A DNA stretch of 64,000 bases, from NCBI GenBank assembly GCA_951406725.2, contig OX597814.1, positions 200,756,001-200,820,000 of the forward strand, written 5' to 3'. Source of the DNA: Octopus vulgaris. Lineage: Eukaryota. Shown piece by piece: positions 8,391 through 57,742 of this stretch (position 1 is the first letter of the stretch; every line of letters starts with the position of its first letter). Under the pieces are notes generated by a model, which was not told the origin of the DNA, ran no database searches, and saw nothing but the letters and a program-made list of their open reading frames with translations. The translations under genes were made by a program, and so were the position numbers.

Positions 8391-8975
8391 ATGGAAACAG
8401 TGAATAATATAACCCAAACCCTCTGTTCTCACTATGCCAAACCTATGGCCTCCAAATACCTGATCCACCAGAACTCAGCTATTGCGGACAATGCCAAATT
8501 CAATATATTGATGGCAGACCTCATCAGAGTAATGAGAAATGTGTCCCACATGTGCAACCCTACAGAGTTAAAGAGACACATAGAACACTTCATCCACCAC
8601 ATGCAGTTGTCCGGATACAGCCATAGGGAAAGGATCAGAGTATATAAAGGAGCCATGACGGAATTTGAAACTATCATATATAAGGATAGGAGTGGGATTT
8701 GTCCACTCTGGAATACTTTATATATATGGAATACCAGTGAAAGGACTAAGAAGAAAATAGGGAAGGCCAACTCTTGGTATGGTAGCCACAAATACCAGAG
8801 TATCATGTTTGTCAACACCACCACTAGAGGCAAACTGGTGTGCTGCTTTAGAAGGGCTCCAGACAAGCTTAAGCTGAAAAGTAAGGTTGTAGAAAGGCCA
8901 GGTAACCCTATAAAATCCCTAATCAGTAGAACCTACCCGTTTAATAGAACCCCCTGTACTGATAGGAACTGGTGA
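8391..8975 (+). pseudogene. Penelope-like element ORF fragment (RT thumb/C-terminal region and linker)
   Basis: 194-aa ORF with YAKPMASKYLIHQNSA...KFNIL..DLIRVMRNVS...MQLSGYS...KVVERPG..IKSLI...YPF...C. This matches the PLE pattern Y.KP.....H..S....K..I....R..RN.S....SGY followed by a Cys linker. Confidence 0.75.
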
Positions 8976-21213: not shown

Positions 21214-21600
21214 AAGTATATCTGCTACCCAAATGTGGCTAACCTTTAAGGGTTGATGCTACTGTTGCTTATAGCCCCAAGAAGACACCTCCTCCACCTG
21301 GGTATTGACACACTATCTGTGCCCTATCAGTATTTGCAAAGGGGAGTCATTGTTACAATCTCCAGCCTGACGTGATACACATGGACCCGAGTTTCTGGGT
21401 ATTGACCCGTCATCATGATGACTTCCCTTTGCAAATACTGATTGGGTACAGGTAGTGTGTCAATAGCCAGCTGGAGGAGGTATCTTCCTGGGGCTACAAG
21501 CTACAGTAGCATCAACCCTTAAGGGCTAACCACATTTAAGTGGCAAATATACTTCACGATGTCGTGCAGCTACTGTTTATACCTCGCTCAGAGATTTATT
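21214..21600. mobile_element. Non-coding PLE-pLTR/retrozyme-like insertion with inverted arms and 13-bp TSD
   Basis: ATTTTGATCACTG at 21201-21213 and 21601-21613. Inverted arms of about 139 bp (21212-21350 / 21418-21556). An HHR motif lies in the spacer. Confidence 0.8.
21380..21415 (-). ncRNA. 5'-truncated minimal hammerhead motif
   Basis: Minus strand: TGATGA-C-GGGT-CAAT-ACCC-A-GAAA-CTCGGG-TC-CATG. The helix I 5' strand and C3 are lost at the inversion junction. Confidence 0.65.
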
Positions 21601-21625
21601 ATTTTGATCACTGTTTGACCTATTC

Positions 21626-23305: not shown

Positions 23306-24575
23306 TGTGTCTGTGTTTGTTCCCCCACCATCGCTTGACAATTGGTGCTGGTGTGTTTACATCCCTGAAACTTAGTGGTTCAGCAAAAGAGACTGATAGA
23401 ATAAGTAGTAGGCTTACAAAGAATAAGTTCTGGTGGTTGATTTGCTCAACTAAAGGTAGTGCTCCAGCATGGCCATAGTCAAATGACTGAAACAAGTAAA
23501 AGAGTAAAAGAGATATATGTATGTGTGTGTGTGAGGGGGATGCTTGGGGGTTGGTGCATGTGGTGAAGAAATTCACTTTGCAATCACATGGTTTCGGATT
23601 CAGTCTCACTGCATGAGACCATGGGCTTTTTGCTACTACCCTGAACCAACCAAAGCCTTGTGAGTGGATATGGTAGAGAGAAACTGAAAGAAGCCTGTTA
23701 TATGTATACACACAAATGCAGAGAGGGACTCATACACACACATACACACACTAAGATATTTAATATTTAAAAAATTAATTTAAAAACAATGCAATGTTGT
23801 TCTCTAAGTTCATTAGTTTGTTCTAACCATTTTAGTCTTGCCCATGCTGGAGCATCTACCCCCAAATTTACCAATCTATAATTAAATACCTTCTGAGACA
23901 TAGTTGTCGTAGCTTACATTGAAACAAAATCTTTGATCTGAGACTTATAAAATTAAATATGTCAAATATTAATGCAAGTTCTTTCTTGTTTAGTGGATTA
24001 GCTGTGTATAATATCTTACTTAATTTCGTTAAGTGGAATACAGTTTCAGAAAATATATTAAGATTAGAAATTACTTTTGGATTTTTGTATCTTAATAATC
24101 AAACTATTTATTTATCTATTCTGTTTGAAATGGATTTCAAGAGAATAATTGTTATTTTATATCAATTTCTTATAAGAAAAAACAAAATTAAATGTGAATA
24201 TAATTTTGTTTCATATTTCATAACTAAAAGATGAATGACGTCAACAAGCAGTTTATAGAATTTTAGATATTCGAAGGCAAGTAATTTCATGTGAAAGAAT
24301 GTTTATCATACATAAGAACGCACATATGTACATAGATACAATAGGCACAAGTACGGCTGTGAGGTGAGAAGTTTGCTTCAAACCACATAGTTCTGGGTTC
24401 AGTCCCACTGTACAGCATCTTAGGTAAATGTCTTCTGCTATTGCCTTGGGCCAACCAGAGATTTGTGAGTGGATTTGGTTGACAGAAACTAAAAGAAGCC
24501 TGTCATATGTATGTGAATCGTTGGCAATTTTTTTTCTTCTGTCTTTCTTTTCTCTTGGACTTTCCTCTATCTCCT

Positions 24576-24610
24576 GTTTCTGGAGAAGAGCTTTGCTCAA
24601 AATGTAAAAC
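24576..24610 (+). ncRNA. Decayed hammerhead motif (copy of the 35556 family) in element 24510-24710
   Basis: GTTT-CTGGAGA-A-GAGC-TTT-GCTC-AAAA-TG-TA-AAAC. Differs from 35556 by A6G and CpG-type changes. Confidence 0.6.
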
Positions 24611-25128
24611 CACTTTTCTTTCCTTCCCTGAGTGTCTACTAATACTTTGCATGCATCATCTCCACGTGATGTTTTTTTCTTGTGTTTGTTCTTTGTTTTT
24701 TTTTTTATTTACTATATATATATCATCATCATCATCATCATCGTTGTTTAACGTCCGCATTCCATGCTAGTATGGGTTGGACGGTTTGACTGAGGGCTGG
24801 TGAACCAGATGGCTGCACCAGGCTCAAGTCTTGATCTGGCAAAGTTTCTACAGCTGGATGCCCTTCCTAATGCCAACCACTCCGAGAGTGTAGTGGGTGC
24901 TTTTACGTGCCACCGGCACAGGGGCCAATTAGGCGGTACTGGAAATGACCTCGGCACAGGTGCCAGTATGGCGATGCTGACATATATACATATATATCTT
25001 TACTCCAATAAAAGAAAAATATGTAATGACCATTATTTTTACTTGTTTTTGCATGTATATATTGGTATATGTATGTGGAAATGTATTGGTGTGTATATGT
25101 ATTTCTTACATATATATTGTCAGTGTAC

Positions 25129-25187
25129 TTCTACTGAAGAGTGTAAAGTAATTTTTATTACAGAATACGAAATCTTAAGATATAGAG
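25129..25187 (+). ncRNA. Type-I hammerhead ribozyme with fully canonical core
   Basis: TTCTA-CTGAAGA-GTGT-AAA-GTAAT-TTTT-ATTAC-AGA-ATAC-GAA-A-TCTTAAGA-T-A-TAGAG. All three helices pair, helix III is the palindrome ATCTTAAGAT, and the predicted cut is after AUA (25182). Confidence 0.8.
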
Positions 25188-25345
25188 TTACTGAAATTTT
25201 ATAATTCTTCTTGTCCATTTCCTTGCATTCAGCCTTGTGTTATAAAAAGAGAAGAAATTTAGAGTGGTTTGTAGACATTTGACATCTACTTTTAGCATAT
25301 TGGCATTGGCCCTCCAGCGCTTTTAATTATAATTATATTTTTATA

Positions 25346-25996
25346 GCATTAATAAGTCTCTGAACGAGATATAAACAGTAACCACTCGACAACGTAAAGT
25401 GTACTAGCCATCTGAATGTGGCTAGCCACTGGGGGTGGGGTGTTACTGACGCTTTTAGCCCCAGGAGATCAACGTCACCAGCTGACCTTAGACACAATTT
25501 CAGTGCCCTTGTGTTATTTGCAAAGGGAGGTCATCCTCCATCGAAAACCTAAGTGATACATACGGACTATAGTTTCGAGGTAATTGCCTCTCGTCAACGC
25601 ATGGTAAACACCGGTTTTCGATGAAGGAGACCTTTGCAAATAATAATATTTAACGTTTTTCACAGCAACCACAGTCACTGATTTAGAAAAACTGTCTGAA
25701 AACATTAATAAATCTCTGAACGAGATATAAACAGTAACCGCTCGACAACGTAAAGTGTACTAGCCATCTGAATGTGGCTAGCGTCAGTAACACCCCACCC
25801 CCAGGGGCTAGCCACATTCAGATGGCTAGTACACTTTATGTTGTCGAACGGTTACTGTTTATATCTCGTTCAGAGATTTATTAATGCTTCCAGACAGCTT
25901 TTCTAAATCAGTGACGTTGATCTCCTGGGGCTAAAAGCATCAGTAACACCCCACCCCCAGTGGCTAGCCACATTCAGATGGCTAGTACACTTTACG
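25346..25996. mobile_element. Retrozyme-like/PLE-pLTR insertion: 356-bp unit in partial tandem plus two inverted segments, 13-bp TSD
   Basis: 25347-25426 repeats at 25703-25782. Segments 25781-25915 and 25912-25996 are reverse complements of parts of the unit. TTATATTTTTATA occurs at 25333-25345 and 25997-26009. Confidence 0.85.
25559..25603 (-). ncRNA. Minimal type-I hammerhead ribozyme (U3.G8)
   Basis: Minus strand: CATGCG-TTGACGA-GAGG-CAATTA-CCTC-GAA-A-CTATAG-T-C-CGTATG. 6-bp helix I (one G.U), 4-bp helix II, palindromic helix III, GUC site. Confidence 0.85.
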
Positions 25997-26129
25997 TTAT
26001 ATTTTTATAATTATGCACTTAAAAATTAATTTTACCAATATGGTGGTTTTTATACGCCAACCACTGATATAATCATTTTAATGATTATATCCTCAATTTA
26101 TACGTACACACACACACAAACACATGTAC

Positions 26130-26400
26130 CCTTAATGTAGTTCTTGGGGAGATTCCGCATGGCACAGAGTGTGACAAGGCTGGCCCTTTGAAATACAGGT
26201 ACAACAGAAACAGGAAGAAAGAGTGAGATAAAGTTGTGGTGAAAGAGTACAGCAGAGTTTGTCACCACCCCCTACCAAAGCCTTGCGGAGATTTAAGTGT
26301 TTTTGCTCAATAAACACTCACAACACCTGGTCTGGGAATTGAAACCACGATCCTACGACTATGAATCTTCTGCCCTAACAACTGGATCATTGTGCCTCCA
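26130..26400 (-). mobile_element. SINE with family C head/body and family D 3' part
   Basis: 26215-26400 matches the 13550 type. 26125-26205 matches the 10840-10920 segment. Confidence 0.65.
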
Positions 26401-26619
26401 CTCTTCTCATAGTACATCAGAATAGAAAACACCAGAAGTATAAACTTCCCTTTGAACGAATGGATTAACAAAAAGAAAACAAAAGGAAGGAAAAAAATGA
26501 AAAACACTATGATGCTTTATGTAGTTATGAACAGATATTTAGATAGACTCTTGACACTTTTAACCTTGGCCTAATGGAACATTTAGGATGTGATGGCTGG
26601 AGGTAGAGAGGGCAGTACC

Positions 26620-26905
26620 CAGTGGTGGACTGGTCATGTTGCTAGCTTGCCCGGGGGCAAATGGGCCCGTACGCCATTAGAATCCATACACAGGGGCCCA
26701 TGTTAGTATCTAAGGGGCCTATCCCCTCAAACTTGAGAATTTTTTAATTCACTCCTGGAAGAATGCATTAATTATTTCAGCCTGGCTGTGTTTGTAGACA
26801 CTTGAAAAGAATACTTTCAATAAAAAAAATAAAAAAAATAAATGCTAGCAGATGGGTCCCCTTAGTCTCCTGGCAACCAATATTTTTAGACCCAGTCTGC
26901 CACTG
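26620..26905. mobile_element. hAT-type MITE
   Basis: TIRs CAGTGGTGGACTGG / CCAGTCTGCCACTG. 8-bp TSD GCAGTACC / GCTGTACC with one mismatch. Confidence 0.8.
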
Positions 26906-28111
26906 GCTGTACCACTACTTGAGTGGAACTCATTTCAGATGAAATAGTACTCATTTCAGAGCAGCATGAAATGAAGTGCTTTCCTCATGGACACAATGTA
27001 TCATCCAGCTCCAGAATCAAACCCATGGTCTTATAACTGAGATTCAAAAGCCCCAAACCACAAAGACATGCAAATCAAATTCTTCAGTGGTACCCAACCA
27101 ACTCAATGGCTTTCAATATAACATTACTACTCTGCCTAATGCTTAACACTAGTTTTTAGTATCTCTTCATTTGGTTTATGTTTTCTGATTTAACCAAGAT
27201 TTCTATTCTACTTCAGCCATTTCTGTCGATAACAACATTAAATACTTTTGATATCTGAACTTGCTTTAATCTCATTTAAGCTACTTTGCAAATCTAAGTT
27301 ACTCTCTTCGTCTTATTTGGATGCATTCACAGCTGGTATAACTTCTTTGATATTCATGGATTATTAGCAGATAAATCAGTGTTTTTCACACATATCCCAT
27401 GCAATATACCTCTTGGGTGACGAAAAAAAATGAAAAAAAAAAGCAAGAAAATAACTCAAATAGCTACATTGCCAATGTTACTTATTTCTCTTTCAGCCTT
27501 AATGTACTAAAATATTCTAATTTCACCAGCTTTTTCCATCTCATGCAAACTGTGAAATCAATATGATAAATTATAGTATGTATTATCCTATTGAAGACAA
27601 AGGGAAAAATAATATAAGCATAAAGAAAAATATTGTCATGAAATATAATAATTTTCTTTCTGACTTCAAAGGATTATCTTTTCTTCGTTCTCCATATATA
27701 TTTTGATAATAGTTTTGTGTTCACCACCACCACCTCCACTACTGCTGCCACCGCCACCGCCACCGTCACTGCCACCACCACCATCAACACCACTACCACT
27801 GTTGTCATCGATACTACAATAGATTTTCCTTTCCATGCTATCACATGCTAGAACAGTGTGCATCACTACAATGAAATGCCATTTGTCCAATGCTTTAAAT
27901 ATCTCACTACTCTCGCATTTCACATATTTTTCTTTTTATTCAGCTATATTTTTTCTTTTTTTTTCTTTTCTTTTTTTTTTTTTTTTTTTTACAAATTCTT
28001 GAAGTAACATCCATTACATTCAACACATTGTACTTGACTTTATATACTTTACCAATTCCCTGAAAAATCTTGTGTGCACTCAATGCCCATGTCACATATA
28101 TTCTGTAGTTT

Positions 28112-33110: not shown

Positions 33111-33989
33111 CAGGAGTTGGACAAAATAATGGAAACATCTTAAAATTTCAAACAAATTTATTCTAATATGGGGTAGGACCACCTTTGGCAGTAATTACAA
33201 CTTGAATTCTGCAAGGAATGGACTTGTACAAAGTTTGAATTGTTTGAATTGTCCCTTCTTCAACTAAAACACTCTCCAGTTATTGTAGTGATGATGGTGG
33301 AGGATATCGACTCCTAACTTGTTTTTCTAAAATGCACCATAAATGTTCAATAATATTGAGATCTGGGGACTATGGTGGCCAGATAAAATGTTCGACTTCA
33401 CTTGAATGTTCTTCATGCCATTCAGTAACAACTTTAGCTGCGTGAATTGGTGCATTATCATCCTGAAAATTTGAGTTTCCCTCCAGAAACAGTTCCGCAA
33501 CCTTAGGATGAACTTGCTTAGATAAAATGCTGAAATAGTCTTGACTATTAATTCTGCCATGAAAGGAAACCATTTGGCTGGGAGATTTCCAAGATATAGC
33601 CCCAGCAGATCATTACAGATCCTCCTCCATGTTTAACAGTTGGAAGAAGGCAGTCAGGGTCAAATACTTATTTTGGCTGTCTCCACACGTATACTTGGCC
33701 AGTAGTCAGAAATAAGGATGATGACTCGTCCGAGAAAATAGCATTCTTCCACTGCTCTACAGACGAATTCTGTAGGTTTTACTCGACTCTAAATGCTTTG
33801 CAACTTTTGCAGCCCTCCAGTGAAATCTGGCTTTGTGCAGCTCCCAGCGAACAGTTTTTGTGGAAACTAGGTTCTCGAGGTGGTCATTAAGCTCTGCAGT
33901 AATTTTGGGAGCTGTACTTTTGTGATCCTTTCTAACAATTTGCATAAGTGTCCGATGGTCTCTGCCTGAAAGTTTTCATTTTCTTCCAG

Positions 33990-35555: not shown

Positions 35556-35590
35556 GTTTTACGTTTCGAGCAAAGCTCTTCTTCAGAAAC
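35556..35590 (-). ncRNA. Minimal type-I hammerhead ribozyme (35 nt, extra A) in element 35460-35650
   Basis: Minus strand: GTTT-CTGAAGA-A-GAGC-TTT-GCTC-GAA-A-CG-T-A-AAAC. Helix III is reduced to the palindrome ACGT, with a GUA site. Confidence 0.8.
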
Positions 35591-36164: not shown

Positions 36165-37789
36165 TTGCAGTCAAAATGTTCAGAACGGCATTGTTTTTGT
36201 CAGAAAAGTAGGTATAAGTTTTTATCAAAGTTGTTTTATATTCTATAATTTTCACAGACAATAAATACAATATTAATTGGTATTGTCTGAGATTTTGGTG
36301 TAATTTGAGAGGATAATACAAAAGTTATGGATGATATAGTGATTTACTGCAAAACCTATGGTGGACAAAATGATCAGAACGGTTGAAAAAATAACAAAAT
36401 AATCAAAAAGTGACAGAGAATGCTGGAATTATTTCATATTTAGTGTGAAGCCCTTTAGCTTCAATCAAAGTTTGACATTTTCGACTGCATGGGGAAATTA
36501 AATTTTCAATTTCTTGCTGGGGGATCTTATTCCATTCTTCCTGAAGGGTATTCCATAATTACTCGGTTGTTTTAGGATTTCTGGCTTTCAAACGTTCTCC
36601 TAGAATATTCCACACATTTTCAATAGGATTGAGGTCTGGGTTTTGAGCAGGCCAATCCATAACAATAACCTTTTCAGCCTTGAGGAAGTTCATGACCACC
36701 TTAGCCTTGTAACATGGGGCATTGTCCTGCATGAATATGGGTGGTCGCTTAGTTGAATTTCTCAGCACAGGCTAGACATGATCTTTTACAAGTTGTTTAT
36801 AAACTCCTGCATTTACCTTTCCATATAATCGCAGCAAAGGGCCCACAACATCTCCAGATATCATCTCCCAAACCATGACACTTCCTCCACTGAATTTAAC
36901 ATTAATCTTAAGGCATTTAGGTGACAATTTTTCACCTGCTTTTCGACGAACGTACCTTTTCCCATCTGAGCCAAATAACATAGACTTAGATTCATCACTG
37001 AAATGCACCGTTTGCCATTTTTCTTGAGACCACAACACATGTTCGGTTGCAAAGGGAAGACAACACTTTTTATTCTTGGAGCTGATCAGTGGCTTCACTT
37101 CAGGTGCTCTTGCTTGTAGGTCATGTTCAACTAAAGGACGAGACACAGTTTTTCGAGATAAAGTTTTCTACAGTACAATGCTCATTTCCCGAAAAAAAGC
37201 AGCAGCAGTTTTAAATCTGTCCTTTTTAACCAACTTTACCATAGCACGACCTTCTCTCTTGGTCGTTTTCCTTGGCCTACCTGTAAACTTTCTTGCTTCA
37301 CATGAACCACAATCATTGTAGACCTTAAGAATACCGTGAACAACACTTTTTGACTTGTTAACAATCTTTGCAATAGACCTAATACTTAAATTATCCTTCT
37401 TTCAAAGCTTAATAATCTGCTGACGAATTGGTAACGGAGTAAGTGGCATTATATTAACAAAGTACACTGCAGATATTCTTACTAATGTTTAGTAAACGAA
37501 CTGTCACGTAAACAAATTCAAAACATTAGAGTTCGACAGTTAAATATACTAAAACATGGAGTAAAAGCAACCGTTCTGATCATTTTGGCCGGCATGGGTT
37601 TTGCAGTAAATCACTAAATCATCCATAACTTTTGTATTATCCTCTCAAATTACACCAAAATCTCAGACAATAACAAATAATATTGTATTTATTGTCTGTG
37701 AAAATTATAGAATATAAAACAACTTTAATAAAAACTTATACCTACTTTTTCTGACGAAAACAATGCCGTTCTGAACCTTTTGGCCACAA

Positions 37790-37792: not shown

Positions 37793-37843
<51 letters not shown>

Positions 37844-37942
37844 TCTAAAGTCCTTCTGGTGACGTTGATCGCCTGGGGCTAAAAGCATCAGTAACCCCCC
37901 CCGCAGTGGCTAGCCACATTCAGATGGCTGATACCCCTTACG

Positions 37943-37981
<39 letters not shown>

Positions 37982-57627: not shown

Positions 57628-57707
57628 ATATTAGCCAACCGAATATGGCTTATCCCTTATATTACGGAGCAGTCACTGTCTATATCTCATTTAGAGAATT
57701 ATTATTG

Positions 57708-57742
<35 letters not shown>

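Follow-up and report, generated by a model that had tools for sequence, protein, structure and literature searches.

A type I hammerhead ribozyme motif in Octopus vulgaris lies in a dispersed, protein-free repeat with the insertion marks of Penelope-like elements

Results

The window, by which we mean the whole 64,000-nucleotide stretch of Octopus vulgaris DNA that was analysed, contains a type I hammerhead ribozyme motif on its plus strand (25120-25194), lying in a repeat copy that is split by a second, nested element. The hammerhead features named in a preliminary description of this DNA were all present in the sequence at their coordinates. The core CTGAAGA (C3-U4-G5-A6-A7-G8-A9, 25134-25140) leads into helix II (25141-25168), placed by fold and covariation, in which 4 bp including one G-U (25141-25144/25165-25168) and 5 bp (25148-25152/25157-25161) are separated by a 3x3 internal loop and closed by a 4-nt loop, with G25141-C25168 as the G10.1-C11.1 pair. 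There follow G12-A13-A14 (GAA, 25169-25171), helix III (25172-25181) and A17 (25182); the triplet is AUA and the predicted cut falls after A25182. In its hairpin form helix III has 3 bp, with A25172-U25181 as the closing pair, and a UUAA loop, and over its whole length it is a perfect 10-nt palindrome, which the preliminary description had missed. The 5' side of helix I comprises a proximal strand of 3 bp, a bulged U25130 and 3 bp (25127-25133), supported by two compensatory pairs, and a distal strand (25120-25123) that lies past internal loop 1 and by folding pairs with 25191-25194; its 3' strands (25183-25194), likewise from the fold, are proximal at 25183-25188 and distal at 25191-25194. 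The motif thus combines a CUGANGA core, GAAA, an NUH triplet, closed helices II and III and an open helix I, as in type I hammerheads. A strict type I scan matched the window once, at this hammerhead, and gave no match in 150 Markov-simulated windows. GC content over the motif is 0.24, the MFE z-score of -0.82 shows no gain in stability over shuffled sequences, and the Rfam hammerhead models gave no match to the motif at the gathering score or at E<=10; the Hammerhead_1 model has 45 positions, and its cut-off was reached at just 6 of the 73 genome places scored.

Searching the 2.8-Gb genome with the motif, window excluded, retrieved 129 candidates, 40 of which were scored (84-94% identity), and a 771-bp query retrieved 496 candidate copies; both counts are lower bounds. 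This repeat, which we call family A, is AT-rich and has a period of 480-519 bp, and no ORF was found in its unit. The longest copies carry the 3' end of a previous unit directly upstream, and at four loci (L037, L047, L053 and L060) two hammerheads lie on the same strand 502-519 bp apart, none of them as a fully intact pair. Long tandem arrays were absent from a ranked sample of 3-3.8-kb loci, the longest copy spanning ~1.7 units. Family A therefore shows the non-LTR retrozyme trait of a short, low-GC, ORF-less unit with one type I hammerhead, and two tandem units occur in the family but not at the window locus. No description of family A was found in the main text of the papers searched, and the word 'ribozyme' is absent from the main text of a recent octopus repeat annotation (PMC13282606).

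The window copy is 5'-truncated. Its left part, with the hammerhead, occupies 25050-25345 (+) by BLAST, genomic copies beginning at 25050-25053 and ending at 25345, and starts ~130 nt before the cut site. Genomic copies place the rest at 25997-26104 (+), where the right copy of a target-site duplication is followed by the remainder of the element to its long 3' end and then by (CA)n. The family covariance model detected no second copy in the 64-kb window, so the window hammerhead has no partner in cis. On its 3' side, loop 1 is one base shorter than in most copies. A contig of sequencing run X18 has one extra base at 25189 in this loop, representing an allele or a paralogue; three DNA-like sequencing runs carry the locus nearly unchanged and are too close for a conservation test.

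The nested element (25346-25996, 651 bp, two arms head to head as judged from genomic copies) is flanked by a 13-bp target-site duplication (left copy 25333-25345, +, identical to 25997-26009) and belongs to family B, which is younger than, and unrelated to, the family A copy that it splits; no homology was found between the two families. The family B unit is ~360 bp long and ORF-less, its copies (2,326 candidates) are 95-99% identical (L092-L111 and L143), and its layout of inverted arms and a tail (~45 nt) is that of family A, with a trimer at L143. Its hammerhead in the window (25559-25603, -) is a variant with U at core position 3, an 8-nt palindromic helix III and a GUC triplet; U3 was found in 19 of 20 copies and a G-U at 10.1-11.1 in 18 of 20. 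Family B is a successful family whose ribozyme is probably impaired, and it inserted here into another hammerhead element. Matches to miRNA families of Rfam at 25709-25880 proved to be its inverted arms, and related fragments lie at 21232-21601, 37838-37955 and 57667-57726. Other hammerhead repeats were also seen. A minimal PLE-type (Penelope-like element) hammerhead with an intact core and the 4-nt palindrome ACGT, belonging to a very abundant third repeat, lies at 35586 (-), and a decayed copy of it near 24580 (about 24570-24610, +). A further family (L145, L146 and L149) with a helix II of ~75 nt and a palindromic helix III reaches the cut-off of the Rfam Hammerhead_1 model. Elsewhere in the window, a 194-aa frame (8391-8972, +) without a Pfam match resembles by eye the thumb/linker region of a Penelope-like ORF.

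We aligned 55 of the 62 family A hammerhead copies, excluding seven partial or rearranged ones. The favoured helix I has a 3-bp segment on each side of a bulged U that is invariant in all 55 copies, and it continues for 4 bp beyond a 3x3 internal loop. Two of its pairs change in a compensatory manner (CG in 20 copies, UA in 17 and UG in 10; UA in 26 and CG in 20), as does one pair of helix II (UA in 30, CG in 14), and none of 500 shuffles reached the covariation score of the structure with this helix I. The preliminary description had drawn helix I as 5 bp extendable by TCAGT/ACTGA; these letters are present and the 5-bp register can form, but 133 of 500 shuffles reached its covariation score, and covariation favours the bulged-U register. 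Because the changes mark subfamilies, the covariation amounts to about three events. Core position 7 is A, G or U among the copies. The spacing is canonical, an internal loop coming after 6 bp in helix I and after 4 bp in helix II, and the loop letters are conserved, the A-rich loop 2 being kept in the sister family A' described below. A chance consensus match in AT-rich DNA, which the missing Rfam match and the z-score of only -0.82 might suggest, is ruled out by the compensatory changes in the helices and by family A', which has the same architecture in a different sequence; given also the empty simulated windows, we regard its probability as negligible.

Of the 55 copies, 26 retain an intact core and five retain every feature, the window copy being one of the five; this upholds the earlier view of an unusually intact hammerhead. 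Within the window's subfamily (25 rows), conservation is 91% at non-CpG core positions, 94% in other columns and 72% at CpG positions, a pattern by which the genomic copies of family A decay neutrally after insertion. Together with the compensatory pairs, this indicates that the fold was selected during spread and that inserted copies drift.

The family A covariance model also led to family A' (40.5 bits; 1,290 candidates), with copies at L148:1297-1399 (-) and L157-L186. The architecture and the AUA triplet are retained and the helices altered, helix I being 6 bp without a bulge. Pair counts for A' came from an alignment fitted to the model and carry no weight here. Seven of 21 copies contain a different 10-nt palindrome, ATCGATCGAT, some with CpG decay; all four of its central bases are unlike those of family A, and the palindrome still holds. 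Three copies have a 6-nt palindrome with C17, and the palindrome is broken in all 11 copies with a TT (six) or TTT (five) centre, the latter equivalent to a 4-bp hairpin of neutral energy (0.0 kcal/mol). The strongest indication that dimers were selected comes from the alternative palindromes, because their two innermost pairs form only between molecules. Against the dimer reading, the sequences indicate that the A' lineage tolerates a monomer-type helix III. Minimal PLE hammerheads have a helix III that is absent or core-only, from which the 10-nt palindrome differs and to which three of the 21 A' copies come close.

Nearest-neighbour energies, which ignore core and loop-loop tertiary contacts, give +1.6 kcal/mol for the helix III hairpin against -9.2 kcal/mol for its self-duplex, and -25.2 kcal/mol for a double hammerhead against -12.8 kcal/mol for two monomers. 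In the monomer MFE structure the core AAGA is paired with UCUU of the palindrome, a predicted self-inhibition of the single unit. The hammerhead fold of the window copy lies 3.5 kcal/mol above the MFE, which ties for the smallest gap among 10 copies compared. Efficient cutting is predicted for head-to-tail pairs of units joined through the palindromic helix III and not for single units, so a lone copy is likely to be weakly active or a silent relic. The preliminary description had suggested that the motif may self-cleave as a monomer. This is possible, but it is not favoured by the unstable helix III hairpin, the strong self-duplex and a palindrome that persists in part of family A' although its letters have changed. 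Monomer cleavage that is detectable at 10 mM Mg2+ has, in our estimate, slightly less than an even chance, and efficient cleavage at 1 mM Mg2+ within the native flank appears improbable.

Penelope-like elements are marked by partial tandems, inverted arms, a tail and microsatellite targets (PMC8557442, in the portion consulted). A survey of 62 distinct family A loci gave 91 arm ends. Relative to the cut, 36 of them lie between +160 and +182; another 46 lie at +240 or farther out, and 13 of the latter carry on into the unit that follows. Because the reference contains TA repeats, positions past about +255 come out too high. Where arms occur on both strands, one is short and one long at 15 of 18 loci, and (TA)n or (CA)n tracts adjoin many of the ends. 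Family A thus shows partial tandems, an inverted 5'-truncated arm, two 3' ends and AT-rich or microsatellite targets, as PLEs do, with a tail of ~85 nt compared with 30-40 nt in PLEs. In a lizard PLE, the tail is reported to match two internal RT start sites (PMC11167929, as far as the available text goes). None of 12 junctions placed a 5' end exactly at the cut (scatter -16 to +46, in a sample biased by a query that began at +13), and a pile-up of 5' ends from a linear cleaved template was accordingly discarded. Copies that cross the cut site fit a circular and an uncleaved template alike.

PLE-type enzymes are abundant in this genome, one endonuclease query giving 18,524 candidate GIY-YIG elements. 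In seven fetched regions (L150-L156) there is a young RT-GIY-YIG element, arranged as inverted pairs >95% identical, which is Hydra-clade-like by its RWK and DKT motifs alone; the accessible part of PMC8557442 gives both motifs for that clade. Pfam domains were not found in its 664-aa frame. This element has two 3' ends, TA targets and the same layout as family A, and in its 3' UTR lies a hammerhead-like motif whose core position 4 is C, not U. Across 27 PLE loci (7 + 20) of the 18,524 candidates, family A has no sequence link or pseudo-LTR (pLTR) homology to an autonomous element, and we therefore treat the mobilising partner as putative. One of the 20 GIY-YIG loci physically contains a family A copy, the one GIY-YIG piece seen next to the repeat (L019) lies on the opposite strand, and no RT or GIY-YIG ORF is linked to the repeat in the copies seen.

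Host domains were not found in 38 scanned of the 124 listed window ORFs, the only matches being pieces of Tc1-type transposase. Tc1/mariner-type transposase fragments lie at 33373-33609 and 36775-37401 (-), with a weak DDE_3 and an HTH_Tnp_Tc3_2 match. Among the sequencing runs recorded as RNA, none carries the locus. One possibly-RNA run, compared over 23400-27400, has no contig over 25142-25275 or unique flank and is uninformative either way.

Discussion

Our analyses make it likely that the window hammerhead belongs to a ~500-bp protein-free dispersed repeat, spread by a PLE enzyme, whose type I hammerhead is efficient only as paired units. The motif, the family, the unit length, the absence of an ORF, the inverted arms, the two 3' ends, the neutral decay and the nested insertion are the observed parts of this explanation. 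In the proposed mechanism, a tandem source locus would be transcribed, two of its units would form a double hammerhead, and cleavage would free a ~500-nt monomer that ligation may close into a circle. A Penelope-type RT/GIY-YIG protein would nick AT-rich DNA, and its RT would prime at two internal sites (one ~170 nt, the other 255-265 nt beyond the cut) and copy across the cut site for up to ~1.7 units. Cleavage and circles may be dispensable, since family B is abundant with U3 and a lizard PLE needs no hammerhead cleavage in vitro (PMC11167929, the part available to us).

Several other readings share much of this evidence. The retroelement origin could be as proposed while the window hammerhead cleaves well as a monomer, its 3-bp helix III, tetraloop and a putative contact between loops 1 and 2 being enough. 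Canonical spacing, an A-rich loop 2 that recurs in A' and the tied smallest folding gap among 10 copies are in its favour, as are precedents: within the sections consulted, a coral retrozyme monomer cleaves at ~0.8/min and invertebrate retrozymes with 2 bp and a tetraloop cleave as monomers (PMC7229834), for which reason 3 bp may suffice, and ASBVd(-) is active on its own with a helix III of 3 bp (PMC6466107). The same partial sources also report that axolotl monomers cleave poorly and dimers well (PMC7229834) and that monomers of certain eukaryotic candidates, whose helix III has up to 3 bp, are inactive (PMC6466107); one of nine Xenopus retrozyme dimers cleaved according to the excerpts of bioRxiv 10.64898/2026.07.22.740005. 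We consider efficient monomer cleavage rather unlikely because helix III is an all-weak A-U/U-A/C-G stem at +1.6 kcal/mol with a pairing probability of 0.00-0.05 across six contexts, helix I pairing drops to 0.00-0.04 once 300-500 nt of flank are included, and in the window copy helix II includes a G-U and loop 1 has lost 1 nt. Alternatively, the unit might be the pseudo-LTR end of an autonomous PLE whose coding part escaped sampling. All insertion marks are of PLE type, GIY-YIG PLEs are abundant (18,524 candidates) and Xenopus retrozymes are described as derived from pLTRs (bioRxiv 10.64898/2026.07.22.740005, in part), but every long copy seen has the 3' end of a previous unit, not an ORF, upstream and the 27 PLE loci offered no homology, which makes this origin quite improbable.

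The preliminary description had further raised the idea that the locus might be an intron whose plus-strand pre-mRNA is cut by the ribozyme. That the window copy is one of the five fully intact copies of 55 speaks for such co-option. It was, however, the query, so its intactness partly reflects how it was found, the 26 of 55 copies with intact cores fit neutral decay, and the 38 scanned ORFs contain no host domain, although short exons would escape that scan. We judge co-option very unlikely and see the window hammerhead as one well-preserved copy in a transposon relic, unlikely to cut host-gene RNA.

Returning to the paired-unit repeat, a more speculative step, which we rate as doubtful, would see in the helix III series of A and A' (the 10-nt palindrome, the other 10-nt palindrome ATCGATCGAT, the 6-nt dimer-only form and the monomer-competent 4-bp hairpin), together with self-inhibition by core-palindrome pairing, a natural gating of cleavage, with the copies recording a Penelope-type RT that has two internal starts and crosses the cut of circular RNA. 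If so, the genomic copies would be the footprint that the retrozyme model predicts. The helix III series is in itself a ready-made test set. A single locus matters little, since animal retroelement hammerheads are known by the thousand; family A is of modest value as comparative evidence on whether retrozyme hammerheads are selected as dimers, and it also bears on whether Penelope-like proteins mobilise retrozymes.

At the level of sequence, family A works like a metazoan non-LTR retrozyme, or non-autonomous PLE, with a dimer-type hammerhead. As with the metazoan non-LTR retrozymes in the portions of PMC7229834 consulted, its unit is short, low in GC and non-coding with one type I hammerhead, head-to-tail copies and a short palindromic helix III, PLEs being the proposed mobilisers there too. 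It differs from them in a unit of ~500 bp rather than about 220-350 bp, in copies of mostly 0.5-1.7 units with inverted arms and no long arrays seen, and in helices I and II that extend past internal loops; family A is known here from DNA, its circular RNA being putative. Non-LTR retrozymes have been interpreted as non-autonomous PLE derivatives by Li, Clavereau and Pollet (bioRxiv 10.64898/2026.07.22.740005), whose available passages describe 35 genomes, with no mollusc among them, families of 51-972 bp and retrozymes counted as 'active' at two or more tandem units. Like theirs, family A has solo 'monomer' copies over chromosomes and co-occurs with PLEs; their set shows pLTR homology, and family A has PLE insertion marks instead. 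PLE-associated hammerheads, as far as PMC4209133 was available, share with it a long helix II, the G10.1-C11.1 pair, a palindromic 15.2-16.2 region, opposite-strand pairs 100-700 bp apart, mostly solitary copies and a dimer model, whereas family A has a longer helix III (10 nt), A9 and G10.1 adjacent with no extra base, a 6-bp helix I with a conserved bulge and no linked RT ORF. The double hammerheads of newt and axolotl satellites and of ASBVd(+), in the parts of PMC7229834 and PMC6466107 that cover them, have a helix III of 1-2 bp, against which the 3 bp seen here are borderline, and they resemble family A in a weak monomer helix III, a palindromic loop and a predicted gain on dimerisation.
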